Shown here: piece after piece, positions 46,568-63,535 of the stretch
Numbering within the stretch: position 1 is the first letter of the stretch
Layout: each line of letters begins with the position of its first letter
NCBI GenBank assembly: GCA_039028615.1
Contig: JBCCHT010000050.1
Coordinates: forward strand, 1 to 64,000
Reading direction: 5' to 3'
DNA length: 64,000 nucleotides
DNA from: Myxococcota bacterium
Lineage (GTDB): Bacteria; Myxococcota_A; Polyangia; Nannocystales; Nannocystaceae
The notes under the pieces: model-generated
Told to the model about the DNA's origin: nothing
Databases searched by the model: none
Seen by the model: the letters and a program-made list of their open reading frames with translations, nothing else
Made by a program: the position numbers and the translations under genes

Positions 46568-47659
46568 ATGCGGTGGATGGTTTCGCTCTCGGGTCTGGTG
46601 GTGGCGTGTTCCGTGGAGACGAACGATCCAGTGTTCGACCCCGCCGGGCTCGGCGATGACGACTCCACGGGGACGACCCCTAGCATCACCGCGGCGGCCG
46701 AGGGCTCCGCCACATCGGAAACCACGACCGCCCCGTCCTCCGGTGACGGAGTAGACGAAGGCTCGGGGGAGACGGACTCGATCCTCCTCGATGTCGGCAG
46801 CACGCTCGACCTCGACCCCGGAGGCAAGGGCGGTGGTGAGGGCTGCGAGAAGATCGACTTCCTGTTCGTCATCGACAACTCCAACTCCATGTCGGACGAG
46901 CAGGCCCAGCTCGTCGCGGCCTTTCCCGGCTTCGTCGATGCGATCGTCGACACCCTGCCCGATGCCACCGACTTCCACGTGGGCGTGACCCGAACCGACG
47001 TCCAAGGCTTCGACGATACGCCCACCCCCGACCCCAGCAATCCCTGCGCCTACGTCATGGGCGGGCTGCTCAGTCATGGGACCGAGCCGGACGACCACAG
47101 CGGGCTCGGCCCCGACTGCGGCTTTTCTTCGGGTGCCAACTACATGGTCAACTCCCCGTCGCTCACCGCCGAGTTCGAGTGCGTGGCCCCCGTGGGCACC
47201 CGCGGCAACACGGGCGAGCGACAAGCCGAGGCCACCCTCGCCGCGCTCTCGCCCGCCGCCGCCCAGGCCAGCGAGTGCAGCGAGGGCTTCCTGCGCAGCG
47301 ACGCGCTGCTGGTCGTGGTCGTCATCACCGACGAAGACGACGACTGGAGCGCCCCCGACACGAGCCCCGCCGTCGACGTGCAGGCCTGGACCGACGAGCT
47401 CACCGCCGCCAAGGGTGGGATCGAGAGCAACGTGGTGTTCCTGCTCATCTCCGGGGGCTCGCCGTCCTGGGACACCTGCGGGCCGCTCGACTTCGGCAGC
47501 ATGACCGGCGCCGACGACAGCCCCAAGCTCACCGCCTGGGCCCAGAACTTCAGCAACCACGTGCTGGGCAACGTCTGCGAGGCGGGCTACGAGGCCTATC
47601 TGCAGACCGCGATCTCCACCATCGAGACCGCCTGCATCGACTTCGAGCCCGAGGGTTGA
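46568..47659 (+). CDS. Myxobacterial vWA-like lipoprotein
   Basis: Lipobox VVAC; DFLFVIDNSNSM (MIDAS DxSxS); FLRSDALLVVVVITDEDD. Confidence 0.8.
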   Translation: MRWMVSLSGLVVACSVETNDPVFDPAGLGDDDSTGTTPSITAAAEGSATSETTTAPSSGDGVDEGSGETDSILLDVGSTLDLDPGGKGGGEGCEKIDFLFVIDNSNSMSDEQAQLVAAFPGFVDAIVDTLPDATDFHVGVTRTDVQGFDDTPTPDPSNPCAYVMGGLLSHGTEPDDHSGLGPDCGFSSGANYMVNSPSLTAEFECVAPVGTRGNTGERQAEATLAALSPAAAQASECSEGFLRSDALLVVVVITDEDDDWSAPDTSPAVDVQAWTDELTAAKGGIESNVVFLLISGGSPSWDTCGPLDFGSMTGADDSPKLTAWAQNFSNHVLGNVCEAGYEAYLQTAISTIETACIDFEPEG

Positions 47660-47744: not shown

Positions 47745-49601
47745 ATGGCCTCGTCTCCGCGCTCCCGAGCATCCCTGGTCGCCGTCACCGGATTGTTGGC
47801 CCTGGCAACCTGCCAAGACGAGGGCCTGCCGCCGTGCAACGCGCCACATGGCGACTGCCCGGTCGCCAGCACCGAGACCTTCGTCGACCCCCTGGTGCAC
47901 GTGGGTCGAGCCGCCGGCCCCACCTTCATCGAGATCGTCGACGTCGTCACCCACGGCGACCTGGTGCTGGCGTGCACGGGCACCAAGGGCCTGACCATCT
48001 GGGACGCCTCGGGCGATGGCGCGCCCCGACTGCTGTCGGAGAAGATCGGTCCCACCCACCAGGGCCTGGCCAACGGCAGCTTTCCCCGCTGCCAGCACGT
48101 GTCCGTCGACCCCACGGGTACTCGGGTGGTGATCACCAACCGCGGCGACGAGATCCAGCCCACCCCGTGGCTGTGGGTCTACGACATCTCCGATCCGCGC
48201 AGCCCCGACGACATCGGCGGCTGGACCGACCTCAGCTCGATCGAAGGCGTGGTCTACAACGATGGCCTCGTCTACGCCGCCCTGCACGGCACGGGCGTGC
48301 TCGTCTACCGGGTGACCGAGGCGGGTGGAGTCGACATCCAGGGCGGCTACAAGGACGAGTTCTCCGACGCGTGGCAGCCTGCCCTGGCCGGCAACCACCT
48401 CTACGTGGCCGAGGGCGCGACGGGCCTGCGGATCTACGACGTCGAAAGCGGCGATCCAGAGCTGCTGTCCACTCTGCCGCTACCGGGCTCGAGCCGTGAC
48501 GTGATCGTCGAGGGTGACCGGGCCTATGTCGCCGACTCGGCCGGGATGGCGATCGTCGACATCAGCGATCCTCGCGACCCGCAGCTGCTCAGCCAGATCG
48601 ACTCCGACGGCACCTCGCTGGCGCTGGCCATGGGCGCGGACGATACGGTGGTGATGGCCGAGTGGGACCAGGTTCGCGGCTACGACGTCTCCGACCCGAC
48701 CGCGGTGGAGACCGTCTTCGCCGAGACCGTCCCCACCGACGACGAGTTCTCCCGCGTGCTCGCCATCGATGCCGACCGCGACCGTCGGCGGGTCTACGCG
48801 GGCGAGTGGCGCGGCCTTCAGGTGTTCGACCACGTGTCGGGAGGCCATGGCCCCGACATCTCGATCACGCCCAACGTGCTGCAGTACGGCCTGCTGACGG
48901 GAGGCGAGAGCGACTCGCGGGTGGTGGTCGTGCGCAACCGCGGCGACGTTCCCCTGACCGTGCACGACGTGGTCGGAGGCCCCGGCGTCACCGTGGACAC
49001 CGAGTGCTTCCAGGTCCCGCCGGGCGGGGCCACGGCCATCGAGGTCACCTTGCAGGTCAACGACCACGACCAGGTCGACACCGGCCTGAAGTTCTGCTCG
49101 GACGACCCAGACGAGAGCGAGCACGTCGTCTCGCTGTCGGCCAACGTGCCCGGCCTGGGCGTGGGCGACGAGGTGCCCGCGTTCGCCCTCCAAGATCTCG
49201 ACGGCAATACTTGGTCCACCGAGCAGCTACGCGGCAATATCGCGGTACTCGCGTATTTCGCCACCTTCTGACCCGTCTGCAGTCTGGAGTTTCCAGACCT
49301 CGAAACTCAGATCTGGCAGCGCTACGAGGACCAAGGGGTCGTCGTCTTGGGCATCGCCGGGGCGGGCCTGTTCGGCAACGAGACCTCCGCGACCCTGGCC
49401 GCCTTCGTCGAACAAACCGGAATCACGTTCCCGGTGCTTCGAGGGGATGCCTCGTACTTCGACTACGCCAACCCGGACGGGGCCATCTCCCCCTTCCCGC
49501 TGGACGTGATCATCGATCGAGAGGGGCGGATCCGCTACCTGCGCCACGAATTCGACGGAGACGCGATGACCTCTGAAATCGAGCGTCTGCTGGCCGAGTG
49601 A
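47745..49601 (+). CDS. Putative selenoprotein: LVIVD-repeat lipoprotein + Ig-like domain + thioredoxin-fold redoxin domain with UxxC
   Basis: In-frame TGA at 49269-49271 in context FATF-U-PVC; same frame stays open to 49601 and completes a TlpA/AhpC-TSA-like domain (ITFPVL, PFPLDVIIDREGRIRY). Confidence 0.85.
49282..49298 (+). promoter_or_regulatory. Candidate bacterial SECIS element
   Basis: Perfect 7-bp stem GUCUGGA/UCCAGAC with a GUU apical loop starting 18 nt after the UGA. Confidence 0.7.
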
Positions 49602-49800: not shown

Positions 49801-50958
49801 ATGTCCAGCGACTTCATCGTGTTCGGCAGCCCGCTCATCGGGCCAGAGGAGATCGAGGCGGTCACCGAGACCCTGCGCACCTGCTGGCTGGGCACGGGTC
49901 CCCGGACCAAAGAGTTCGAAGAGAAGATCGCCGAGTACACCGGGGCCAAGCACGCGATCGCGGTGTCCTCGTGCACCGCCGCCCTGCACCTGTCGCTGGT
50001 CGCCCTGGGCATCGGCCAAGGCGACGAGGTCATCACCACTCCGATGACCTTCGCCGCCACCGCCAACTCCGTCGCCCACACCGGGGCGACCCCCGTGTTC
50101 GTCGACTGCCAGCGCGACACCCTCAACCTCGATCCGGCCGGGGTCGAGGCGGCGATCACCGAGCGCACCAAGGCCATCCTCCCCGTGCACTTCGCGGGTC
50201 GGGCCCTCGACATGGACGCGCTCACGGCCATCGCCAAGAAGCACGACCTGCACCTCATCGAGGATGCCGCCCATGCGCTCGAGACCCGCTACAAGGGCAA
50301 GACCATCGGCCAGACCGGGGGCGACACCGCCTGCCTGAGCTTCTACGTCACCAAGAACATCACCACCGGTGAGGGTGGGATGCTGCTGACCAACGACGAC
50401 GAGATCGCTCGCAAGGCTCGGGTCTTGTCGCTGCACGGGCTGTCGGCCGACGCCTGGTCGCGCTTCAGCGACGCCGCGCCCAAGCACTACGAGGTCGTCG
50501 TTCCCGGCTACAAGTACAACCTCACCGACATTGCCTCCTCGCTCGGCCTCATTCAGCTCAGCCACATCGAACAGTGGCTGCCCAAACGCGACGCGCTGTG
50601 GGAGCGCTACAACGAGGCCTTCGCCGATCTGCCGCTCATCGTGCCCGCCCCGGTCGAGGCCGAGACCCGGCACGCCCGGCACCTGTACACGCTGCTGGTG
50701 ACGGACGACGCTCCCGTCGATCGCGATGGCTTCCGCGAGGGGCTGCACACCGAGGGCGTGGGCACGGGCATCCACTACGCGCCCCTGCACCGTCACCCCT
50801 ACTATCGCGACCGCTTCGGGCATACCGACGAGCAGTTCCCGAACGCGTCGTTCATCGGTTCGCGTACGTTCTCGCTGCCGCTGTCGCCCAAGGTGACCGA
50901 CGAGCAGGCGGACCGCATCATCGCCGCCGTCCGCAAGGTCGCCACGGGCGGCAAGTAG
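49801..50958 (+). CDS. DegT/DnrJ/EryC1/StrS family PLP-dependent aminotransferase
   Basis: SSCTAALHL, TFAATAN, IEDAAH, SFYVTKNITTGEGG, GYKYN. Confidence 0.93.
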   Translation: MSSDFIVFGSPLIGPEEIEAVTETLRTCWLGTGPRTKEFEEKIAEYTGAKHAIAVSSCTAALHLSLVALGIGQGDEVITTPMTFAATANSVAHTGATPVFVDCQRDTLNLDPAGVEAAITERTKAILPVHFAGRALDMDALTAIAKKHDLHLIEDAAHALETRYKGKTIGQTGGDTACLSFYVTKNITTGEGGMLLTNDDEIARKARVLSLHGLSADAWSRFSDAAPKHYEVVVPGYKYNLTDIASSLGLIQLSHIEQWLPKRDALWERYNEAFADLPLIVPAPVEAETRHARHLYTLLVTDDAPVDRDGFREGLHTEGVGTGIHYAPLHRHPYYRDRFGHTDEQFPNASFIGSRTFSLPLSPKVTDEQADRIIAAVRKVATGGK

Positions 50959-51146: not shown

Positions 51147-51896
51147 ATGCGAACGTCGTGGTTTCGATTGTCGGTGCTGATCTTGGGCCTGTCCTCCGCG
51201 AGCTGTGGGGATTCCGAGGAGCTCGACCCCGCCGATGCCGAGCACGCGGACGCCATCTTGCTGGGCATGTGGGCCGACGACGTCGACATCGACGTCGGGG
51301 CGGAGGCCATCGTGTTCTCGAGCGACGGCGTTCCCAACCACGACGTGCTCGAGGCCTATGCCCTCTCCGATAGCTCCACCATCCAGGTCGTGGCGAGCGA
51401 CACCACCGTCAGCGTACCCGTGAGACCCGAGTACTCCAGCACCACCACCGCCACCGGCCTGGGGACCATCGGCTTCGCCATCAGCGGCGCGGTGTTCTTC
51501 AACCCCTACGAGGGCGACGGCGTGAGCGTGGCGGTGGACAACAACTTCGACGTGGGTGGCGTGCCCTTCATCGACGCCTGCAACGGGCACCCTCTACCGC
51601 CCAGCGGCGGGAGCTACCACTACCACGCCATTCCCTATTGCATCACCGACGTGGTCGACACCGCGGGTGCCCACTCCTCGCTCATCGGTGTGCTGCTCGA
51701 CGGCTTCCCCGTCTATGGACCCAACGGCGAGGGAGGCACCGCCCCCAGCGACCTCGACGAGTGCAGCGGCCACGACGGGGCGACGCCGGAGTTCCCCGAC
51801 AGCGTCTACCACTACCACCTCACCGAGACCTCGCCCTACAGCATCACCTGCTACCACGGGACCGTGGACGCAGGGGGCAACACCGGACGTCCGTGA
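51147..51896 (+). CDS. YHYH-domain lipoprotein
   Basis: Lipobox SASC; DACNGH...YHYH, DGFPVYG, LDECSGH...YHYH. Confidence 0.85.
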   Translation: MRTSWFRLSVLILGLSSASCGDSEELDPADAEHADAILLGMWADDVDIDVGAEAIVFSSDGVPNHDVLEAYALSDSSTIQVVASDTTVSVPVRPEYSSTTTATGLGTIGFAISGAVFFNPYEGDGVSVAVDNNFDVGGVPFIDACNGHPLPPSGGSYHYHAIPYCITDVVDTAGAHSSLIGVLLDGFPVYGPNGEGGTAPSDLDECSGHDGATPEFPDSVYHYHLTETSPYSITCYHGTVDAGGNTGRP

Positions 51897-52737: not shown

Positions 52738-53649
52738 CTAGGCCCCCGGGCGCGAGGTCATGGCCGCGGGTCGATGGCCGGCTTCATAGATCCGGCGTGG
52801 CGGCGGCTTGAGATCCCAGACCAGACCGACCCAGCTCATCGCGAGGAGGATGTAGTAGGTCATGTCGATCTCCCACCAGAAGAAGCCCTGACGGCAGGAG
52901 CTCATGGTGTGGTGGTGGTTGTTGTGCCAGCCCTCGCCCATCGTCAGCAGGGCGAGCACCCAGTTGTTGCGGCTGTCGTCGGTGGTCTCGTAGCGGCGCT
53001 TGCCCCAGATGTGGGCGAGCGAGTTGATGGTGAAGGTGCCGTGCCACAGCACCACCGTGCTGAAGAAGAACCCGATGAAGTAGCCCCACCAGCCCAGGAA
53101 GTACAGGCAGCCCAGGGCGAGGATGGTGGGCGGCAGCAGCCAGAAGCGATCGAGAAACACCAGCTCGGGATAGCGAGCGAAGTCTTTGATGCGCGCGGGG
53201 TCGAAGCCTTCGTTGTCGTCGAAGACCCACATGATCTGCGAGTGCCAAAAACCCCAGCGCACGGGCGAGTGCACGTCGCGATCGGTATCGGCATGGCGAT
53301 GGTGGTCGCGATGCTGGGCCGCCCACCACAGGGCGCCGCGCTGCGCCGAGCAGGTCGCCCCGAACGCGAACAAGAACTGCACGAAGCGGCTGGTCTTGAA
53401 GCTGCGGTGCGAGAAGTAGCGGTGGTAGCCCGCGGTGATGAAGAACATCCGCACCCAGTACAGGACCACGGCGAGGATCCACGCCGAGGCGGGTGCCCCC
53501 ATGAGGATGCCCGCGACCGCCCCACCGATGCCCGCCACGTGACAGGCACCGAACTTGGCCATCTCCGACCACTGGTACTCGCGAGCGGACATGGCGATGC
53601 GACCCCGGGCGCGGGGCGGTGGTGCAGGAGGTAGCTCGAAGAGCTTCAT
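52738..53649 (-). CDS. Acyl-CoA (delta-9-like) fatty acid desaturase
   Basis: His boxes HRYFSH, HRDHH and GEGWHNNHH. Confidence 0.92.
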   Translation of the reverse strand: MKLFELPPAPPPRARGRIAMSAREYQWSEMAKFGACHVAGIGGAVAGILMGAPASAWILAVVLYWVRMFFITAGYHRYFSHRSFKTSRFVQFLFAFGATCSAQRGALWWAAQHRDHHRHADTDRDVHSPVRWGFWHSQIMWVFDDNEGFDPARIKDFARYPELVFLDRFWLLPPTILALGCLYFLGWWGYFIGFFFSTVVLWHGTFTINSLAHIWGKRRYETTDDSRNNWVLALLTMGEGWHNNHHHTMSSCRQGFFWWEIDMTYYILLAMSWVGLVWDLKPPPRRIYEAGHRPAAMTSRPGA

Positions 53650-54716: not shown

Positions 54717-56381
54717 TCAGGCCCCCTCCTTCACGCCGCTGCGCCCCTCGAAGAAGGTGCGACCGTCGACGCGCTGCGCCGCTCCGGCCCCGCAGGCATA
54801 CACGCACATCGGCGTGCCGTCGCCCACCGACGCGCACTGATCGCAGGTGACCGCCTTCTTCGCCTGACCTCGGCTCGCGATCTGGATCGCCTGGTAGGGG
54901 CACTGCTCGGAGCACAGCCCGCAGCCGATGCACCAGTCTTCGATCACGATCTCGTTGTCGAGGCCGCGGTGAATCGATCCCACCGGGCAGCCGATCATGC
55001 AGGTTGGGTCCACGCACTGGCGGCAGGTATCGGGGACGAGGAAGTTGCCGAAGCGGGGCCCCTGGCGAGTGAGACGCGGGATGCCCTGGTGGGTGTCGGC
55101 GCAGGCCCGCACGCAGTCGTTGCAGCGGGTGCAGGTGTCGAGGTCGATGAGCATGACCTTCTCGGCCCGGATCAACCCGAGGGCATCGGCGAGGCTCTCC
55201 ACCGCGAAGGGCGTGGCGGGTGAGGCCTGGCTCTCGCGACGTTGTCGGAGGAAGCGACGGGCATTGGCCGCGATCTCCGAGTAGCCCTCGACCATCTTGT
55301 CGACGGTGCGCTTGGGAATGCGGATCAGCTCGGCGCCGAAGCGCCCGACCATCCTCCGCGACTGCCCCACGTCCTTGCCCGTGGGCGAGTAGACCTGGCA
55401 GCGGAACTCGTGGACCCCATCTTTGAGCACCTCGCCGATGGCCAGCGACTCCCCGCGCGAGATGTAGCGAATGACCCGCCCGCCCGGCTTGCCGCGGGTC
55501 AGGGCCAGGGTGCCCGCCCGCACGAGATAGATGGCGTCCGCCTCGTCGCCGACGTCGAAGACCACCTCGCCCGCCTTGCACGAGATCATTTGGGCGTGGC
55601 GCCGCACGGTGGCCAGGGCGTCGACCGGCGCGCCTTCGAAGAGCGGGATGCCGGTCAGGGCGCTCTGCAGCGAGCGCTTGCGGAAGATCTCGTCGAGGGT
55701 CTGCTTGAAGCGCTCGTTCTCGAGGGCCATCTCGAGCACGTTGCGGACCATCTCGATGACGTAGCAATCCTCGATGGCCCGGATGCTGGCGCTGCGCGGG
55801 GTGTGGTTGAAGCAGCTCGTCTCCCCGAAGATCTCACCCTCGCGGAGGTAGGCCACCAGCGCCCCTTGGTCCTCGGCCTCCACCGTCACCGTGCCGCCCG
55901 CGGCTTCGATCTGCTTGCGCCTCGAACGACGAAAGAACAGGTCGCCCAAGCGCGTCAGCCCGGAGGGATTCTCGACAGCGGTGGGAGCGGCATCGGGGGC
56001 GATGAAGACCTCGGCCTTGCGCGGCAGCTCGCTGTTGCCCGCGAGCAGAAACCCCGCCTTGGTGGCCGAGTTGGAGTCGATCTCGCCTTCGTGCTCGACC
56101 CGAGCACCATCGTTGCCGAGCGGCGGCAGCTCGAGCGCCCGCACGTCGGCATCGCGGAGCAAGTAGAACGCGGTCCAGCCCGGCTCCCCTTGGCGAACGA
56201 TGAACTCTCCCGCCTGGTACTTGCGCACGACGGTCGCGCCCTGACCCAGCAACGAACGCAGCCGGCGATCGATGGAACGGGGGGCGCCCGCCAGCAATGG
56301 CGTGTGGCGGAGCTGCTCGGCCGTGAGCCGGATGTCGTCGTTGCGAACGCTCAGGCGATCCGGGTGCGCTTGCGTGGTCAT
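54717..56381 (-). CDS. Cyclic-nucleotide-binding (2x) + 4Fe-4S dicluster protein
   Basis: EIFGE...PRSASIRA cNMP motif; CTRCNDCVRAC, CRQCVDPTC, CIGCGLCSEQCP, CDQC...CVYAC. Confidence 0.85.
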   Translation of the reverse strand: MTTQAHPDRLSVRNDDIRLTAEQLRHTPLLAGAPRSIDRRLRSLLGQGATVVRKYQAGEFIVRQGEPGWTAFYLLRDADVRALELPPLGNDGARVEHEGEIDSNSATKAGFLLAGNSELPRKAEVFIAPDAAPTAVENPSGLTRLGDLFFRRSRRKQIEAAGGTVTVEAEDQGALVAYLREGEIFGETSCFNHTPRSASIRAIEDCYVIEMVRNVLEMALENERFKQTLDEIFRKRSLQSALTGIPLFEGAPVDALATVRRHAQMISCKAGEVVFDVGDEADAIYLVRAGTLALTRGKPGGRVIRYISRGESLAIGEVLKDGVHEFRCQVYSPTGKDVGQSRRMVGRFGAELIRIPKRTVDKMVEGYSEIAANARRFLRQRRESQASPATPFAVESLADALGLIRAEKVMLIDLDTCTRCNDCVRACADTHQGIPRLTRQGPRFGNFLVPDTCRQCVDPTCMIGCPVGSIHRGLDNEIVIEDWCIGCGLCSEQCPYQAIQIASRGQAKKAVTCDQCASVGDGTPMCVYACGAGAAQRVDGRTFFEGRSGVKEGA

Positions 56382-56590
56382 GGAGGGCGGGGGCGGCTGG
56401 GGATTTTCCCACCAAGGGCCGCGGCTCGACAATCAACGACATACCGCTCCTGTCGCCGTCGTGCACGGAAGCGACGCTTGTGTCGCTTTGTCGGGGCGCG
56501 GCTGGACCCCCACACGCCGCCAAGCCACGGATTTTCCTGGACTCGCGCCGTCCGGGGCCCGCCTGCACGGACCTTGCTCTGACGAAGGCC

Positions 56591-58285
56591 GTGAGCAGCT
56601 CCACGCTGACCGAGCCCCGACGTCTGCCGATCGTCGACGCCCCGTCTCGGCGGCCGCCGGTCGAGCCTTCGCTGGTCGGCCTCCTCCAGGAGTCGCTGCG
56701 GGAGCAATCGGATCTCAGCGGAGTGGAGCGGTTCTCCACCCTGCACGAGGCGGGCGCCCTCGACTCGATGGCGAGTCGATACTCCGCGCTGCTGCCCGCC
56801 ACCGCGCCCGGACCCGGTCAGCAGTACGGCTTCGAGGTCGATCTCGACGCCTGCACCGGATGCAAGGCGTGCGTCACCGCTTGCCACACCCTCAACGGGC
56901 TCGACGACGGCGAGGCATGGCGCGACGTGGGCACCCTGCGAGGGGGCAGCACCGCCCGGCCCGTGATCCAGCCGGTCACCACCGCGTGCCACCACTGCGT
57001 GGAGCCGGCGTGCCAGTCGGGGTGCCCCGTGCTCGCCTACGAAAAGGACCCGGTCACGGGCATCGTGCGGCACCTCGACGACCAGTGCATCGGCTGCCAG
57101 TACTGCGTGCTCAAGTGCCCCTACGACGTCCCCAAGTACAACGCCCAGCGCGGGATCGTCCGCAAGTGCGACATGTGCTCGCAACGCCTCGCCGTAGGGG
57201 AGCCGCCCGCGTGCGCCCAGGCCTGCCCGACCGGAGCCATTCGCGTTCGTGTGGTGTCGACCGACGACGTCGTCGAGGCCTCGGAGGCGGGCCGCTTCTT
57301 GCCGGGCAGCCCGGACCCCATCTTCACCCTGCCCACCACCACCTTCACCAGCCGTCAGCCGCTGCCCACCAACATGCTGGCCGCCGACCACTACCGGGTG
57401 CACCGCGAGCACGCGCACCTGCCCCTGGTGTGGATGCTGGTGCTCACCCAGATGGCGGTGGGTGCCGTCGTCCTGCAAGAGCTCGTGCGACGCACGGCCG
57501 ATGTCGGCGTGTCCACCTCGCAATCCCTGTTCGCGATGGTCGTGGGTTTCGTCGCCCTCGCGGCCAGCACCCTGCACCTGGGGCGACCCCACCTCGCGTT
57601 TCGGGCGGTGCTGGGCATTCGCCGATCGTGGCTGAGCCGGGAGATCGTGGCGTTCGGAGGCTTCGCGGCGCTTTCGGTAGGCTACGCGGCAACCCACGCC
57701 TGGGGCGGCCCGGCCCCCGCGTGGCTCGACCCGCTGGGCACGATGGTCTGCGTCGTGGGGCTCGGCGCGGTCGCGTGTTCGGCGATGGTCTATCACGACA
57801 CCAAGCGCGTGGCCTGGGATCTATCTTCGGGCCTGCCGCGCTTCTTGCTGACGACCGCGATCTTGGGCGTGGTCGCTCTGCTGGTGACCAGCGCCCCCGG
57901 TTCGTTTCAGCCGATTCCCCCGCCGTGGATCCGCAGCCTGCTGCTCGTGCTGCCGCTGTTGGTCGGCCTGCGGCTCGGCCATGAGCTGCTGGTGCTCCTG
58001 CACCGCCACGACCGTCGCCACTGCCCCAACAAGCGCACCGCGTTGCTGCTGATGGGCGAGCTGCGCTCGGTCCTGTGCACTCGCGTCGCGTTCGCGGCCG
58101 TCGGGGGCATCGGCCTCCCCGCCGTGCTGCTGTGGGCCGCCGATGCGCCCGGCATCCGGGTCGCGGCCGACGTGCCGATCTTCGTGGGGGCCATCGCCGC
58201 GCTGACCTTCGTGGGCGAGCTGCTCGCTCGCTACCTGTTCTTCGTCTCCGTCGTCTCTCCGAAGATGCCGGGAGGAGCGCTCTGA
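56591..58285 (+). CDS. DmsB-like 4x[4Fe-4S] domain fused to a DmsC-type membrane anchor
   Basis: CTGCKACVTAC, CHHCVEPAC, CIGCQYCVLKCPY, KCDMC...CAQACP; HLGRP...SWLSREI; ELLARYLFF; GTG start. Confidence 0.88.
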   Translation: MSSSTLTEPRRLPIVDAPSRRPPVEPSLVGLLQESLREQSDLSGVERFSTLHEAGALDSMASRYSALLPATAPGPGQQYGFEVDLDACTGCKACVTACHTLNGLDDGEAWRDVGTLRGGSTARPVIQPVTTACHHCVEPACQSGCPVLAYEKDPVTGIVRHLDDQCIGCQYCVLKCPYDVPKYNAQRGIVRKCDMCSQRLAVGEPPACAQACPTGAIRVRVVSTDDVVEASEAGRFLPGSPDPIFTLPTTTFTSRQPLPTNMLAADHYRVHREHAHLPLVWMLVLTQMAVGAVVLQELVRRTADVGVSTSQSLFAMVVGFVALAASTLHLGRPHLAFRAVLGIRRSWLSREIVAFGGFAALSVGYAATHAWGGPAPAWLDPLGTMVCVVGLGAVACSAMVYHDTKRVAWDLSSGLPRFLLTTAILGVVALLVTSAPGSFQPIPPPWIRSLLLVLPLLVGLRLGHELLVLLHRHDRRHCPNKRTALLLMGELRSVLCTRVAFAAVGGIGLPAVLLWAADAPGIRVAADVPIFVGAIAALTFVGELLARYLFFVSVVSPKMPGGAL

Positions 58286-60453
58286 TGCTGTACACGCGAG
58301 TCGGACCGCATACCCGCGACCTCGAGCTTCATCCGAGCGGGCTGGGCCGAGTGCCGAGCGAGCTGCGAGAGTGTCGAACCACGGGCTCGGTCTGTGGCTT
58401 CTGCTCGACCGGGTGCGAGCTGTCGATTCACACGCGAGACGGCCGTGCCCAGGGCCTGACCCCCTCCCCGACATGGCCGGTCAACCGGGGCGTCGCGTGT
58501 CCCAAGGGCTGGGAGGCCTTGGCGGTGACGCAGTCGGCCGCGCGAGCCACCACCCCGCTGCTGCGCGACGACGGGGGCGTCCATCGACCCATCGCGTGGG
58601 ACCGCGCCATGCGGCTCTTCGCCGATCGCTTCGGCGCCATCGCCCGCCGCCATGGGCCGGAGTCGGTCGCGTTCCTCTCCACCGGCCAGATCCCCAGCGA
58701 AGAGATGCTCATGCTCGGCGTGCTGGCCAAGTGCGGCATGGGCATGGTGCACGGCGACGGCAACACCCGGCAGTGCATGGCCACCGCCGTCACCGCCTAC
58801 AAGGGCTCGTTCGGCTTCGACGCCCCGCCCTATACCTACGCCGACTTCGAGCAGTCCGATCTCATCGTCCTGGTCGGCTCGAACCTGTGCATCGCTCATC
58901 CCATCCTGTGGTCGCGCGTCGTCGCCAATCGTCGAGACCCCGCGATCGTGACCCTCGATCCGCGCATGTCCGAGACGGCGCGGGCCAGCACGCTGCACCT
59001 GCGGCTGCGGCCGGGCAGCGATCTGGCGCTCTTCCATGGCGTCGCCCGGGCGCTCATCGAGCGAGGCGCGGTGGACCAAGCCTTCGTCGATGCATCCACC
59101 GTGGGATTCGAATCTTTTGCCCGCTTCGTCCAGGCCTACGACCTGCCGCGGGTCGCCTCCGCCACCGACCTCGAAGTGGCGCAGATCGAGCAGTTCATCG
59201 AACTCATCGCCGAGCGCGGTCGCGCCTCGTTTTGGTGGACGATGGGCATCAACCAGAGCCACCAGGGCACCCGCACCGCCCAGGCGATCATCAACGTCGC
59301 GCTCATGACCGGCAACATCGGGCGTCCGGGCACGGGGGCCAACTCGATCACCGGGCAGTGCAACGCCATGGGCTCGCGGCTGTTCAGCAACACCACGGCC
59401 CTCCCCGGCGGTTACCGCTACGACGACCCCAAGGGGCGCGCCACCGTGTCCCGGGCGCTGTCCATCGATGCCGGCCGCTTCCAGACCGAGCCCGGGCACG
59501 CCTACGACCGCATCGTCCGCGGCATCACCCAAGGCGAGATCAAGGGGCTGTGGATCATCGCGACCAATCCCGGGCACTCATGGATCGACCGTCGCACCAT
59601 CGAAAATGCCTTGGGCATGCTCGACTTCGTGGTGGTGCAGGACCTGTTCGCCGACACCGAGACGGCGCGCCGGGCCGACCTCGTGCTGCCCGCGGCCGGC
59701 TGGGGCGAAAAGGACGGCACCTTCATCAACTCCGAGCGTCGGCTCGGCCGCATTCGCAAGGTCCAGCGCGCATCGGGGCAAGCCCTCGCCGACTTCCACA
59801 TCTTCCGCTTGGCCGCCGCGGCCACGGGCAACGGGGCGCTCTTCGACACCTGGACGAGCCCCGAGCATGTGTTCCACAAGCTCAAGGCCACCACTGCCGG
59901 TCAGCCCTGCGACATCACGGGCATCGAAGACTACGCCATGCTCGACCGTCATGGCGGCATCCAGTGGCCGCTGCCCGCCGGGCACCCGGTCGAGGACCAA
60001 CACCGACGGCTCTTCGAGGACGGCGTGTTCCACCACGAAGACGGACGGGCCCGCTTCGTGTTCGAGCCGCCACGCCCCCTGCCCGAGACCATCTCGGCCC
60101 GCTTTCCGCTGCTGCTCAATACCGGTCGGGGTACCTCGGCACAGTGGCATACCACCACCCGCACCCAGAACTCGACGGTGCTCGCCCGGTTGCACCCGCC
60201 TCAGGCGTACGTCGAGCTCCACCCGAGCGATGCCAAACACCGATGCATCGCCGATGGGGATCGGGTGCGGGTGGTGTCTCGGCGCGGCAAGATCCACGCC
60301 CGGGCTCACGTCACCCGCAGCGTTCGAATCGGCGAGGCGTTCATGGCCATGCACTACGCCACCACCAACCTCGTGACCCGGGCGCAGTTCGATCCGCACT
60401 CTCGCCAACCCGCCTACAAGGCGTGCGCGATCGAGATCCAGCGGCTCGAGTAG
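58285..60453 (+). CDS. Molybdopterin nitrate reductase catalytic subunit (NasA/NarB-like)
   Basis: CGFCSTGC...CPKG Fe-S motif, NTRQCMA (Mo-Cys), TGQCNAMG, EKDGTFINSERR; TGATG overlap with upstream gene; no Tat signal seen. Confidence 0.88.
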   Translation: MLYTRVGPHTRDLELHPSGLGRVPSELRECRTTGSVCGFCSTGCELSIHTRDGRAQGLTPSPTWPVNRGVACPKGWEALAVTQSAARATTPLLRDDGGVHRPIAWDRAMRLFADRFGAIARRHGPESVAFLSTGQIPSEEMLMLGVLAKCGMGMVHGDGNTRQCMATAVTAYKGSFGFDAPPYTYADFEQSDLIVLVGSNLCIAHPILWSRVVANRRDPAIVTLDPRMSETARASTLHLRLRPGSDLALFHGVARALIERGAVDQAFVDASTVGFESFARFVQAYDLPRVASATDLEVAQIEQFIELIAERGRASFWWTMGINQSHQGTRTAQAIINVALMTGNIGRPGTGANSITGQCNAMGSRLFSNTTALPGGYRYDDPKGRATVSRALSIDAGRFQTEPGHAYDRIVRGITQGEIKGLWIIATNPGHSWIDRRTIENALGMLDFVVVQDLFADTETARRADLVLPAAGWGEKDGTFINSERRLGRIRKVQRASGQALADFHIFRLAAAATGNGALFDTWTSPEHVFHKLKATTAGQPCDITGIEDYAMLDRHGGIQWPLPAGHPVEDQHRRLFEDGVFHHEDGRARFVFEPPRPLPETISARFPLLLNTGRGTSAQWHTTTRTQNSTVLARLHPPQAYVELHPSDAKHRCIADGDRVRVVSRRGKIHARAHVTRSVRIGEAFMAMHYATTNLVTRAQFDPHSRQPAYKACAIEIQRLE

Positions 60454-60469
60454 GCCCGAACGACGCCAA

Positions 60470-60485
60470 CCTACAAAATTGTAGG
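60470..60485. promoter_or_regulatory. Perfect palindrome, candidate enhancer (bEBP) site
   Basis: CCTACAA-AA-TTGTAGG, about 95 bp upstream of the sigma-54 motif. Confidence 0.6.
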
Positions 60486-60579
60486 AAGCGCGCCCGAGGC
60501 GAACACAAACGTCGTTTCAAAGCGTGTGAGGCTTCATAATTTCTCGTCTTCCCCGGCACTTGGGCACCCACTCGGCGGG

Positions 60580-60595
60580 CGGCACGACATTTGCA
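60580..60595 (+). promoter_or_regulatory. Sigma-54 (-24/-12) promoter
   Basis: CGGCACG-ACAT-TTGCA closely matches TGGCACG-N4-TTGCW with the invariant GG and GC correctly spaced. Confidence 0.75.
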
Positions 60596-60610
60596 TTGAA
60601 GCCCCCCACC

Positions 60611-63535
60611 ATGAGCGACAGCAAAGCTCGGATCGTCGTCGTCGGTAATGGCATGGTGGGACATCGGTTCTGCGAACGACTCGTAGAGCAGGGGATCCAA
60701 CAACGTCACCGCGTCGTCGTATTCGGCGAGGAGCCATGGTCGGCCTACGACCGCGTCCACCTCAGCGAGTACTTCGCCAGCCGCGATCCGCTGGAGCTCG
60801 GCCTTCGCTCGAGAGACTGGTACGCGCAGGTCGGGATCGAGCTGCGGACGGGGACCGCGATCGTCTCGATCGATCGCGAAGCGCAGGTCGTCGTCGATGA
60901 TGCCGGGCAGGCGCACGGCTACGACCAGCTCGTGCTGGCTACCGGCTCGTCGTGCTTCATGCCTCCCGTGCCCGGCATCGATCGGCCCGGCGTTTTTCCC
61001 TACCGCACCATCGCGGACCTCGACCGGATCATCGCGTACGCCGAGGGTCGAGGTCGCGGCACGATCCTCGGCGGAGGCTTGCTCGGGCTCGAGGCGGCCA
61101 AGGCCCTGAAGGAGCTGGGGGTGGACACGACCATCGTCGAGATGGCGCCGCGGCTGATGCCCCGGCAGCTCGATGACGCGGGGGCGCGCGTGCTCGGCCG
61201 CACCATCAAAGACCTCGGTTTGGCGCTACGCCTCGGTGCCCGCACCACCGAGCTCGCCGGCCGAGACGCGGTGCAGCGGCTGGTGTTCGACGACGGCACC
61301 CAGCTGGACACGGACATGGTGGTCGTCTCCGCCGGAGTTCGGGCCCGCGACGAGCTCGCGCGTGAAGCCGGGCTGGAGCTCGGGCCGCGGGGAGGCGCGG
61401 CCGTCGATGCTCATCTGCAAACCTCGGATCCCCAGATCTTCGCGATCGGTGAGGTCGCCGCGTTCCACGGCGAGCTGTACGGCCTGGTCGCCCCCGGCTA
61501 TGCGATGGCCGACGTGCTGGCCAAGCGCCTCGCGGGCACCGATGCCACCTTCGAGCGCCCCGATCTCTCCACCAAGCTCAAGCTCCTGGGCGTGGACGTG
61601 GGCAGCTTCGGCGATGCCTTTGCCGAGGGCGACGACATCGATTGCATCACCATCGAGGACCTGCGCAACCGGATCTACAAGCGCATCAACATCCGTCGCT
61701 CCGACTCCGCCCTCGTCGGCGGGATGCTGGTGGGCGACGTCAGCCAATTCGCCCAGCTCGATCACCTGGCCCGCAGCCGCACTCCGATCCCCGACTCACC
61801 CGAGCGCCTGATCATCGGCGACCCGGCGGCCCCCGCCGCCCGCCTGCCCGACGAGGCGGGCGTCTGCTCGTGCGAAGGCGTCTGTGCGGGCACCATCCGT
61901 CGCACGATCCAGCAGCAGGAGCTCGACGCGGTGGACGGCATCAAGCGCTGCACCAAGGCCGGCACCGGCTGCGGCGGCTGCGTGCCCATGCTCGAGACGA
62001 TCCTCGACGAAGAGCTCGCCGCCGCGGGCAAGGCCGTGTCGCGCAGCCTGTGCCAGCACTTCGACCATAGCCGGCAGGATCTGGTCAGCATCATCAAGGT
62101 CGAGCAGCTGCGCAGCTTCGACGAGATCATCGAGCGCCACGGCCGAGGACAAGGCTGCGAGATCTGCAAGCCGGCCGTCGCCTCCATCCTCGCCAGCCTG
62201 TGGAACGAGCTGGTGGTCGAGCATGCGAACATCCAGGACACCAACGACCGTTTCCTCGCCAACATCCAGCGCGGCGGCACCTACTCGGTGATCCCCCGCG
62301 TGCCCGGCGGAGAGCTGTTGCCCCATCAGCTGGTCGCGCTCGGTCGCATCGCCCAGGACTACGACCTGTACACCAAGATCACGGGCGGGCAGCGGGTCGC
62401 CCTATTCGGCGCCCGGGTGGAGGACCTGCCGAAGATCTGGGAGGAGCTCATCGAGCACGGGTTCGAGAGCGGCCACGCCTACGGCAAGGCCCTGCGTACG
62501 GTGAAGTCCTGCGTGGGTACCGACTGGTGCAGGTATGGCATCGGTGACTCGTGCGGGCTCGCGATTCGGGTGGAGAAGCGCTACCGCGGCATTCGAGCGC
62601 CCCACAAGATCAAGATGGCGGCCTCCGGCTGCATCCGCGAGTGCGCCGAGGCCCGCAGCAAGGACGTGGGCTTCATCGCGGTGGAGGGCGGCTGGAACGT
62701 CTATGTGGGAGGCAACGGCGGCGCCAAGCCCCGGCACGCCGAGCTGCTGGCCGAGGGCGTCGACGAGACGACCGCCATTCGCTACGTCGACCGATTCCTC
62801 ATGTACTACATCCACTCTGCCGACAAGCTGACCCGCACCGCGGCGTGGATCGAGAGCCTCGAGGGCGGCATCGACTATGTGCGCTCGGTGGTCGTCGACG
62901 ATGCGCTGGGCATCGCCGACCGCCTCGAGCGAGACATGGCACGCCTGGTCGACACGTATGCGTGCGAGTGGAAACGAGTCGTGGAAGACGAAACCCTACG
63001 GGCTCGCTTCACGCACGCCGCGACCGATCGGCACGGCGATCCCAACGTGCGTTTCATACGGGTGCGCGGTCAAAAGCGGCCCGCGCCCTGGAGCGAACCG
63101 GCCAAGGCTCCGCGTAGCAAGACCCGCCTGCCGACCTTTCAGCCCACGCGTGCACGGTGGGTTCGCGTTGGAAGCGCAGCGGAAGTCCCGCCAGACGCGG
63201 GCACCACCTTCCGGTATGGTTCCTTCCAGATCGCCGTCTTCAACTTCGCGAGTCGCGGACGCTTCTATGCCACCCAAAACATGTGCCCGCACATGCAGGA
63301 CATGGTGCTCGCGCGAGGCCTCACCGGAGATGATAATGGAGTCCCCAAGGTGATCTGCCCCATGCACAAACGAAGGTTCTCGCTCGAGTCGGGCCAGTCC
63401 CTCGACGGTGATCTTCCCGGCATTCGCACCTTCCCCATCCGAGTCGAGGCCGGCCAAGTCTTCGTGAAGCTCCCCCCCGCCGACAGCCACGAACTCACCA
63501 CGCCCGCGTGCGGGCGGAAATCGAGCCCACGATGA
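60611..63535 (+). CDS. nirB: NADH-dependent siroheme nitrite reductase NirB with C-terminally fused NirD (Rieske) domain
   Basis: GNGMVG, GGGLLGLE, CSC/GTGCGGC, GCEIC, CVGTDWC, SGCIREC; C-terminal CPH...CPMH Rieske motif. Confidence 0.93.
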   Translation: MSDSKARIVVVGNGMVGHRFCERLVEQGIQQRHRVVVFGEEPWSAYDRVHLSEYFASRDPLELGLRSRDWYAQVGIELRTGTAIVSIDREAQVVVDDAGQAHGYDQLVLATGSSCFMPPVPGIDRPGVFPYRTIADLDRIIAYAEGRGRGTILGGGLLGLEAAKALKELGVDTTIVEMAPRLMPRQLDDAGARVLGRTIKDLGLALRLGARTTELAGRDAVQRLVFDDGTQLDTDMVVVSAGVRARDELAREAGLELGPRGGAAVDAHLQTSDPQIFAIGEVAAFHGELYGLVAPGYAMADVLAKRLAGTDATFERPDLSTKLKLLGVDVGSFGDAFAEGDDIDCITIEDLRNRIYKRINIRRSDSALVGGMLVGDVSQFAQLDHLARSRTPIPDSPERLIIGDPAAPAARLPDEAGVCSCEGVCAGTIRRTIQQQELDAVDGIKRCTKAGTGCGGCVPMLETILDEELAAAGKAVSRSLCQHFDHSRQDLVSIIKVEQLRSFDEIIERHGRGQGCEICKPAVASILASLWNELVVEHANIQDTNDRFLANIQRGGTYSVIPRVPGGELLPHQLVALGRIAQDYDLYTKITGGQRVALFGARVEDLPKIWEELIEHGFESGHAYGKALRTVKSCVGTDWCRYGIGDSCGLAIRVEKRYRGIRAPHKIKMAASGCIRECAEARSKDVGFIAVEGGWNVYVGGNGGAKPRHAELLAEGVDETTAIRYVDRFLMYYIHSADKLTRTAAWIESLEGGIDYVRSVVVDDALGIADRLERDMARLVDTYACEWKRVVEDETLRARFTHAATDRHGDPNVRFIRVRGQKRPAPWSEPAKAPRSKTRLPTFQPTRARWVRVGSAAEVPPDAGTTFRYGSFQIAVFNFASRGRFYATQNMCPHMQDMVLARGLTGDDNGVPKVICPMHKRRFSLESGQSLDGDLPGIRTFPIRVEAGQVFVKLPPADSHELTTPACGRKSSPR

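Follow-up and report, generated by a model that had tools for sequence, protein, structure and literature searches.

The locus considered here raises a simple question: is the TGA codon that interrupts a redoxin-containing reading frame a genuine stop, or does it encode selenocysteine (Sec)? The gene lies at 47745..49601 of the window, i.e. the whole stretch of 64,000 nucleotides (nt) that was analysed, which covers positions 1 to 64,000 of contig JBCCHT010000050.1 (GenBank assembly GCA_039028615.1) of a Myxococcota bacterium from the family Nannocystaceae. Features of the window are on the forward strand unless indicated. An earlier note on this DNA had observed that two open reading frames (ORFs), 47745-49271 and 49347-49601, share a frame, that the stop between them falls at the first Cys of a redoxin motif, and that the whole may form a 618-residue Sec509 protein missed by standard annotation. 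These observations hold. The frame reads as 618 codons with TGA509 as Sec, followed by a terminal TGA stop, an end that homologues share (..LLAE-stop). Its sole internal TGA is codon 509 (49269..49271), in the context VLAYFATF-U-PVCSLEFPDL, where it would encode Sec509. This codon occupies the first-Cys position of the TlpA/ResA-type motif FATF-U-PVC, for which homologues with Cys (CPVC) exist, and contigs of the public run X1, possibly from the source sample, carry no alternative letter at 49269-49271, hence neither TGC nor TGT. Another public run, X2, holds just a small share, and none of the runs listed as carrying this DNA is an RNA run, a fact without bearing on expression.

Databases treat the gene differently. 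Among 120 database homologues listed, 75 (the window's own included) terminate exactly one residue before the TGA and 9 run over the full length, with CPVC at the motif; the other 36 are LVIVD proteins outside the family. The RefSeq entry WP_106090929.1 from Enhygromyxa salina likewise terminates at AYFATF, i.e. at the TGA. As judged from the sequence, 47745-49601 is very likely a single 618-residue Sec protein that databases split in two, and readthrough with Sec at TGA509 is almost certain.

A bacterial hairpin resembling a Sec insertion sequence (SECIS) lies at 49282..49298, +11 to +27 after the TGA, its GGAGTT core spanning +15 to +20. Its letters (GTCTGGA-GTT-TCCAGAC) and its loop G, the 18th base past the TGA (+18), are as the earlier note gave them. 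The perfect seven-pair stem of that note is not what the family conserves: the innermost A-U pair survives at only 12/25 homologous TGA sites, which leaves six conserved base pairs (a 6-bp stem) closed by a loop of 5 nt, AGUUN. The hairpin has an energy of -8.6 kcal/mol alone and -9.6 kcal/mol in context, and from +1 to +39 it is the dominant fold, with pair probabilities of 0.93-1.0 for the six outer pairs. According to the available portion of PMC13188914, bacterial SECIS elements (bSECIS) have a loop of 3-9 nt, a stem of 4-16 bp, a G in the first two loop positions, a spacing of 16-37 nt and an energy of -7.5 kcal/mol or lower. The present hairpin falls within all these limits, with 7 bp and a GUU loop (or 6 bp and AGUUU), a spacing of 17 (16) nt and -8.6 kcal/mol. 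Its folding z-scores are only -0.2 to -1.8, and thermodynamic folding was rejected as a sole criterion, by which the hairpin is not singled out. Neither an Rfam search over the gene, at E values up to 1, nor a search for promoter-like or terminator-like sites returned anything.

The case for the hairpin rests on covariation, not on stability. Across 25 TGA sites, 90.9% of the cells of the stem (+11..+17 / +21..+27) are paired and 44 cells have changed on both sides of the stem. Stem covariation reaches 0.658 vs 0.158 after shuffling (0/500 shuffles), and slid controls stay at or below 0.091. When distinct TGA sites are pooled, 66 sequences from Myxococcota, Acidobacteriota and Chloroflexota that are related and hence not independent, the GGAGTT core is found in 66/66 and all six stem pairs in 63/66. 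Despite this kinship, the stem changes extend across deep clades. The 8 TGC sites show 0-3 stem pairs, and GGAGTT is retained in 2/8 of them; TGA thus prevails at this codon together with a covarying hairpin, and the Cys-codon homologues are without one. The Phe/Leu codon within the loop is TTT, TTG or TTA at 66/66 TGA sites, and CTG, TTC or CTC at 8/8 Cys sites. In the source genome, TTT accounts for 11% of Phe codons and TTG plus TTA for 9% of Leu codons, TTC, CTC and CTG being strongly preferred. Since the TGA sites use codons that are rare genome-wide, the loop codon points to selection at the RNA level. Core and stem together are also rare in the source genome: among its 228,673 TGAs, six pairs at this offset follow 802 and the GGAGTT core follows 17, and the two coincide after just 3, those of the window gene and its two paralogues.

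The source genome (12.3 Mb, 68% GC, 96.7% complete) possesses the complete Sec machinery, selA, selB, selC and selD, that the earlier note had asked to look for. The selA, selB and selD genes score over curated cut-offs, and the single tRNA with a TCA anticodon found by aragorn is tRNA-Sec (Rfam RF01852, 68.6 bits). Of its 38 AhpC-TSA matches, nine are interrupted by a single in-frame TGA, which in all nine sits at the catalytic position and in most precedes a short hairpin. With nine redoxin-type genes carrying a catalytic TGA, the organism appears rich in selenoproteins. Two are full-length paralogues with the TGA at the same site (C1:338598-340241 and C14:15306-16919).

Six other thioredoxin (Trx)-fold genes with a catalytic TGA are located at C42:70068-70430, C6:131141-131512, C18:139105-139482, C60:23343-23651, C11:238829-239002 and C18:212364-212633. 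Four are peroxiredoxin (Prx)-like with UxxC, one carries FGSYSUPPF, and one is similar to glutathione peroxidase (GPx-like); most have a short downstream hairpin and several a lipoprotein-like N-terminus. The FGSYSUPPF motif is presumably akin to a deiodinase-like motif.

Two other ways of reading the TGA have to be weighed against Sec. It might be a real stop or a nonsense mutation, leaving a 508-residue propeller-immunoglobulin (Ig) lipoprotein and a separate or dead 3' fragment, which is how databases annotate the gene; nor is the hairpin the most stable fold overall. The thioredoxin fold would then end at its own catalytic residue; moreover, 66 distinct sites share the TGA and a covarying stem, homologues with Cys run on without a break, and conservation of the part downstream extends up to its final residues, all of which makes a true stop highly improbable. 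Reading of UGA as Cys or Trp, through an altered code or a suppressor tRNA, would agree with the Cys found at this position in homologues. The conserved C-terminus of the gene, however, itself ends in TGA, and the lone tRNA with a TCA anticodon is tRNA-Sec in a genome with selA, selB and selD, so that this reading has even less in its favour and is given next to no weight. Sec insertion at codon 509 is retained in what follows.

The gene belongs to a widespread family with three copies in the source genome, which the earlier note did not foresee. Its nearest named homologues are Myxococcota, chiefly Nannocystaceae. Among relatives and paralogues (31 long rows), 27 have TGA and 4 have TGC. A scan of GTDB genomes yielded 64 loci in Myxococcota (Nannocystaceae, Polyangiaceae, Kofleriaceae), Acidobacteriota, Chloroflexota and others. 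Of the 61 sites with a long upstream frame (56 loci), 56 carry TGA and 5 TGC, a ratio biased toward Sec as the scan pattern was drawn from a Sec-rich clade. The TGA is kept down to ~25% identity. In a set of 61 relatives, selA is over cut-off in 12/14 TGA-bearing genomes vs 38/61 overall. In the GTDB set, for the genomes behind 35 of the 64 loci, it is over cut-off in 28/30 TGA carriers and 5/5 Cys carriers. Loss of the Sec machinery as the cause of the Cys forms was therefore rejected, selA being present in 5/5 Polyangium genomes and in all 4 of the relatives that carry Cys forms. A FastTree phylogeny was built from 77 Sec and 17 Cys rows (94 in all), short and frameshifted loci being excluded. 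On it the Sec/Cys label requires 9 changes, 8 of which are forced by well-supported branches, and most Cys rows are nested within Sec rows. This suggests repeated replacement, possibly of Sec by Cys, on a tree midpoint-rooted for drawing only. Among shorter proteins, no close intact stand-alone Sec domain appeared; the matches there are mostly post-TGA fragments, and the whole TlpAs are 33-37% identical.

A divergent clade (20-25% identity; L023, L025, L037-L045) displays motifs such as FLKLF..-U/C-PTCAEELP. The Cys pair of the propeller is retained in this clade, and so is the hairpin in members with TGA, but not in those with TGC. Tandem pairs of family genes occur at L048, L049, L050, L053 and L054, with TGA and hairpin in both copies. 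Loci L066, L102, L105, L068 (reverse strand), L110 and L065 contain single frameshifts or 3' remnants in which the TGA and the hairpin are still kept.

The predicted product is composed of a lipoprotein signal and three domains, a layout in which Pfam and the AlphaFold2 model agree with what the earlier note had proposed (LVIVD region, Ig-like domain and redoxin behind a lipoprotein signal). The putative signal peptide (47745..47813) has a basic N-region, a hydrophobic stretch and the lipobox L-A-T-C23, and the C23 column of alignment A1 is at least 90% Cys. A lipobox-like pattern is found in 62/84 family proteins, and several of those without it are truncated at the start; the Thr at -1 is atypical. 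Next comes a seven-bladed β-propeller (residues ~48-364, 47886..48836) with LVIVD repeats in its middle blades, of which PF08309 matches residues 247-284 (51.9 vs cut-off 20.2 bits). An Ig-like (HYDIN/ASH, choice-of-anchor-D-like) β-sandwich follows (residues ~370-467, 48852..49145); here PF22544 (residues 370-464, E 2e-5) lies just under its cut-off, as NF012200 also lies under its own. The C-terminal domain (residues ~470-618, 49152..49598) shows a TlpA/ResA-type thioredoxin fold with U509-P-V-C512 and a conserved P583-x-P585-x-D587. Its AhpC-TSA/Redoxin Pfam match (residues 473-614) spans the TGA, with 61.4 vs 26 bits for PF00578 and 46.1 vs 26.6 bits for PF08534.

An AlphaFold2 model of residues 24-618, computed with 93 sequences, has a predicted local distance difference test score (pLDDT) of 94.8 and a predicted template modelling score (pTM) of 0.92. 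It displays seven four-stranded blades, a β-sandwich and a thioredoxin fold, in what the pTM value implies to be an ordered arrangement. Among the families listed, fold searches return only generic seven-bladed WD40-type propellers with Z scores up to 34.1, and Foldseek places the propeller and C-terminal domain (CTD) of SOQ1 (7djl) at rank 11 over 508 columns. By sequence, the redoxin part is nearest to ResA, TlpA, DsbE and DipZ in the PDB. The propeller gives weak PDB matches, led by a Sphingobium phosphotriesterase and then an archaeal surface-layer protein. For this domain the Atlas search returned generic LVIVD clusters alone, and when its profile was run against 1.84 billion representatives, giant LVIVD-repeat proteins crowded the results.

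The propeller carries a set of conserved residues of its own. Cys77 (47973..47975), at the end of strand B of blade 1, and Cys116 (48090..48092), just before strand A of blade 2, are each found in 69/71 aligned rows and occur together in 83/84 family proteins. From the strand register, they are probably partners on the top face. Over these 71 rows, conservation amounts to 97% for C77 and C116, 100% for W307 and W355, 99% for R337, 93% for E167, 85% for H118, 83% for W210 and 76% for H181. According to the strand register of the model, these polar and aromatic residues would fall in the DA and BC loops. In such propellers, the DA and BC loops form the top, ligand-binding face. The giant LVIVD-repeat proteins and the 36 non-family LVIVD matches do not align over C77/C116.

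What could such a protein do? We lean, with slightly better than even confidence, towards a lipid-anchored disulfide reductase of the envelope with a substrate-binding propeller, because profiles place the redoxin domain nearest to ResA/TlpA/DsbE. Also in its favour are the encoded DsbD_TM protein, the redoxin genes near a number of family members, the DUF6029-like barrel and TlpA genes that flank the C1 paralogue, the ordered model, the conserved loop residues of the propeller and the SOQ1 match 7djl. SelB with Sec-tRNA would bind the hairpin and insert Sec509, and the protein would then be exported and, given its predicted signal, lipidated. The Sec509 selenolate would attack a target disulfide and Cys512 would resolve the mixed selenenylsulfide. 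A DsbD/CcdA-type membrane protein, of which the source genome encodes one (DsbD_TM), would re-reduce U509/C512. C77, C116, H118, E167, H181, W210, W307, R337 and W355 may form a client-binding pocket on the top face of the propeller. C77-C116 may be either a structural disulfide or, by analogy with SOQ1, the first electron acceptor of a relay. A bolder version, which we hold to be rather unlikely, is that the Sec-thioredoxin domain recharges the Cys pair on its own propeller face, this pair being the true catalytic site. The family would then comprise surface or periplasmic selenoenzymes, accompanied in some lineages by extra TlpA lipoproteins and a DUF6029 barrel, and would be a domain-reversed counterpart of SOQ1/NHLRC2.

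Two further functions compete with the reductase. The propeller might be a metal-binding enzyme whose Cys/His site is kept reduced for metal loading by the Sec-TlpA domain, in the way that TlpA keeps copper-centre sites reduced for metal loading. A Cys/His/Glu cluster is present on blades 1-3, probably at the top face, in both main subclades, and the best PDB sequence match of the propeller (E 1.5e-5) is a Sphingobium phosphotriesterase with a binuclear metal site (5hrm/5ioj), which by fold reaches Z 32.4 across 310 residues. Of 46 members, one weakly matches the methanethiol oxidase MtoX (E 0.006). The 5hrm match is, however, confined to generic repeat strands and does not reach the ligands, and dozens of non-enzymatic WD40 propellers score equally or higher. 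The His positions are just 76-85% conserved, and blades 4-7 bear Trp and Arg, not metal ligands. A metal enzyme thus seems doubtful. The same low probability is attached to a direct envelope peroxidase or sulfenic-acid scavenger, for which the propeller and the Ig domain would be a scaffold or tether. AhpC-TSA is indeed the top Pfam match, GSHPx matches weakly, and the nine TGA-bearing AhpC-TSA-family matches of the source genome include Prx-like and GPx-like genes. Yet YFATF-U-PVC is a UxxC motif and not the PxxxTxxU/C peroxidatic motif of peroxiredoxins, ResA/TlpA profiles outscore peroxidases by far, peroxiredoxin models remain far under cut-off, and the strongly conserved propeller residues suggest more than a tether. 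PxxxTxxU is given as the signature of peroxiredoxin selenoproteins in the available portion of PMC13188914.

Several observations nevertheless weigh against a Sec-dependent envelope reductase. At the RNA level, an alternative fold is better once more than ~42 nt are folded: the probability of the hairpin is down to 0.15 when +1 to +45 is taken, and 60 nt give 0. Two of the 14 TGA-bearing relatives and 2/30 of the GTDB TGA carriers are without selA over cut-off; the former two genomes are 71% and 83% complete, and the 83% one has selB. Frameshifts or partial deletions affect about five homologues; in the nearest one (L058:6001-7319) an internal deletion comes with a frameshift. Three loci hold 3' remnants only. 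Since such copies exist, the gene is either dispensable in some lineages or misassembled there. At the protein level, W307 is partly a generic residue of LVIVD repeats (108/339 control domains), and H118, H181 and E63 differ between subclades. No NCBIfam model over its cut-off names an activity, neither among the 11 families listed (0/11) nor for the 4 Cys homologues. Gene context speaks for the reductase insofar as another redoxin lies within 12/79 family loci vs 3.8% of the 13.8-kb windows of the source genome, but this enrichment derives from related, partly duplicated loci, and the window's copy has no redox neighbours.

The reductase reading is best compared with the ResA/TlpA/DsbE (CcmG) oxidoreductases. 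The window protein shares with these an extended thioredoxin fold, F-A-T-F-C/U-x-x-C, a likely dependence on DsbD and, by prediction, membrane anchoring. It differs by Sec in place of the nucleophilic Cys, by ~440 extra N-terminal residues and by P-F-P-x-D at the cis-Pro region; ResA, its best NCBIfam match, gives 61.7 bits vs a cut-off of 170. SOQ1 of the plant thylakoid lumen and NHLRC2 of animals combine a thioredoxin-like domain, an NHL β-propeller and a β-sandwich. Three same fold types thus occur in one chain, and the 7djl match covers propeller and sandwich. The order is propeller-Ig-Trx in the window protein and Trx-propeller-CTD in SOQ1/NHLRC2; furthermore, the LVIVD propeller is seven-bladed and has no NHL Pfam match, its second Cys pair is in the propeller and not in the sandwich, and the sequences align over the Trx part only. 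The likeness is best taken as an analogy. In SOQ1, a second Cys pair receives electrons from the Trx domain, and the protein is a methionine sulfoxide reductase (10.1101/2024.11.01.621559, available portion). The TCM1 phosphotriesterase of Sphingobium (5hrm/5ioj) is also a seven-bladed propeller with weak repeat-level similarity (E 1.5e-5); unlike the window protein, it has no redoxin domain.

The presence of Sec in a redoxin is nothing new, such proteins being a known class; it is the architecture that is novel. Table 1 of PMC13188914 (119 families) includes UxxC Prx-like thiol:disulfide oxidoreductases (PF00578), redoxins (PF08534) and TlpA-like proteins (cd02966). As in these UxxC Trx-fold selenoproteins, Sec is the first residue of the UxxC of a PF00578/PF08534 domain and the 3' SECIS hairpin is canonically spaced; unlike in them, the domain makes up the C-terminal quarter of a 618-residue lipoprotein, after an LVIVD propeller and an Ig domain. 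A Sec fusion of an LVIVD propeller and a redoxin is absent from the 119-row table of this 2026 catalogue. The accessible parts of PMC2398784 and PMC9402790 describe other Trx-fold fusions, with remarks on Cys conserved in the attached domains, but do not include this architecture, and no NCBIfam model scores over its cut-off for it. The family motif is absent from the GOS sequence files. The available text of the deep-Sep paper (PMC12013277) contains no match for the family, and the portions at hand of PMC5029168, PMC4807772, PMC11277490 and 10.1101/2022.07.06.499078 nothing that bears on it. BSepDB entries may hold such proteins under a generic name, because the genomes of this database include Enhygromyxa and Nannocystaceae (PMC13326102, available portion). 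Full-text searches, whose coverage does not extend to subscription papers, brought up no description of the propeller-Ig-TlpA Sec architecture.

The gene is preceded by a lipoprotein without Pfam match (46568-47659) that adjoins it. Downstream are found a DegT aminotransferase (49801-50958), also downstream at the locus of the nearest homologue, a YHYH protein (51147-51896) and a fatty-acid desaturase (52738-53649, reverse strand). Further on, 54717-63535 encodes a protein with cyclic nucleoside monophosphate-binding and 4Fe-4S domains (reverse strand) and then a 4Fe-4S/DmsC fusion. ORFs that we take, by eye, to be molybdopterin oxidoreductase-like and NirB-like are also present, and this region looks like a nitrate/nitrite reduction locus.

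Other family members have redox-type neighbours. In 16/79 family loci, a lipoprotein of ~270 residues with a Cys pair (LAC-x-A-x-x-C), a carboxypeptidase-regulatory-like fold and no Pfam match adjoins the gene, e.g. L093:7933-8751, L090:7790-8548 and L087:4911-5903; tblastn did not find it in the source genome. Next to the C1 paralogue, in head-to-head orientation, lie genes for two redoxin lipoproteins and for a DUF6029 protein (L113:4779-8145). A cluster that comprises a TlpA, a redoxin lipoprotein with 'AGWCxPC' and an outer-membrane barrel of DUF6029-like type recurs beside family members at L113, L062, L089, L051, L035 and L061, and forms a candidate envelope redox module. The DUF6029-like barrel profile matches 6/79 family loci, 5 of which are its own source sequences. 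Genome-level counts of DUF6029 are uninformative because the six-frame search missed the copy of the source genome that Pfam detects at 28.5 bits. DUF6029 is described as a β-barrel with a possible role in polysaccharide export in the available portion of PMC9603273.

For databases, the finding corrects a systematic annotation error, at least 75 proteins, including the RefSeq entry of a cultured strain, being stopped at their catalytic codon. It adds a multi-phylum and apparently uncatalogued architecture to bacterial Trx-fold selenoproteins, most of which, among those listed, are small and single-domain, exported lipid-anchored ones being few. The 66 Sec sites with a covarying stem vs 8 Cys sites without it constitute a natural data set for bacterial SECIS rules, and the family also offers one for repeated Sec/Cys switching in genomes that retain the Sec machinery. 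If the Sec domain does recharge the Cys pair of its own propeller, the propeller site may repair oxidised Met or Cys of envelope proteins, or run a metal-dependent reaction, and in some lineages TlpA lipoproteins and the DUF6029 outer-membrane barrel would bring reducing equivalents out to the cell surface. Since both forms are available in culture, the TGA form in Enhygromyxa salina and the Cys form in Polyangium, what the family does can be tested directly.

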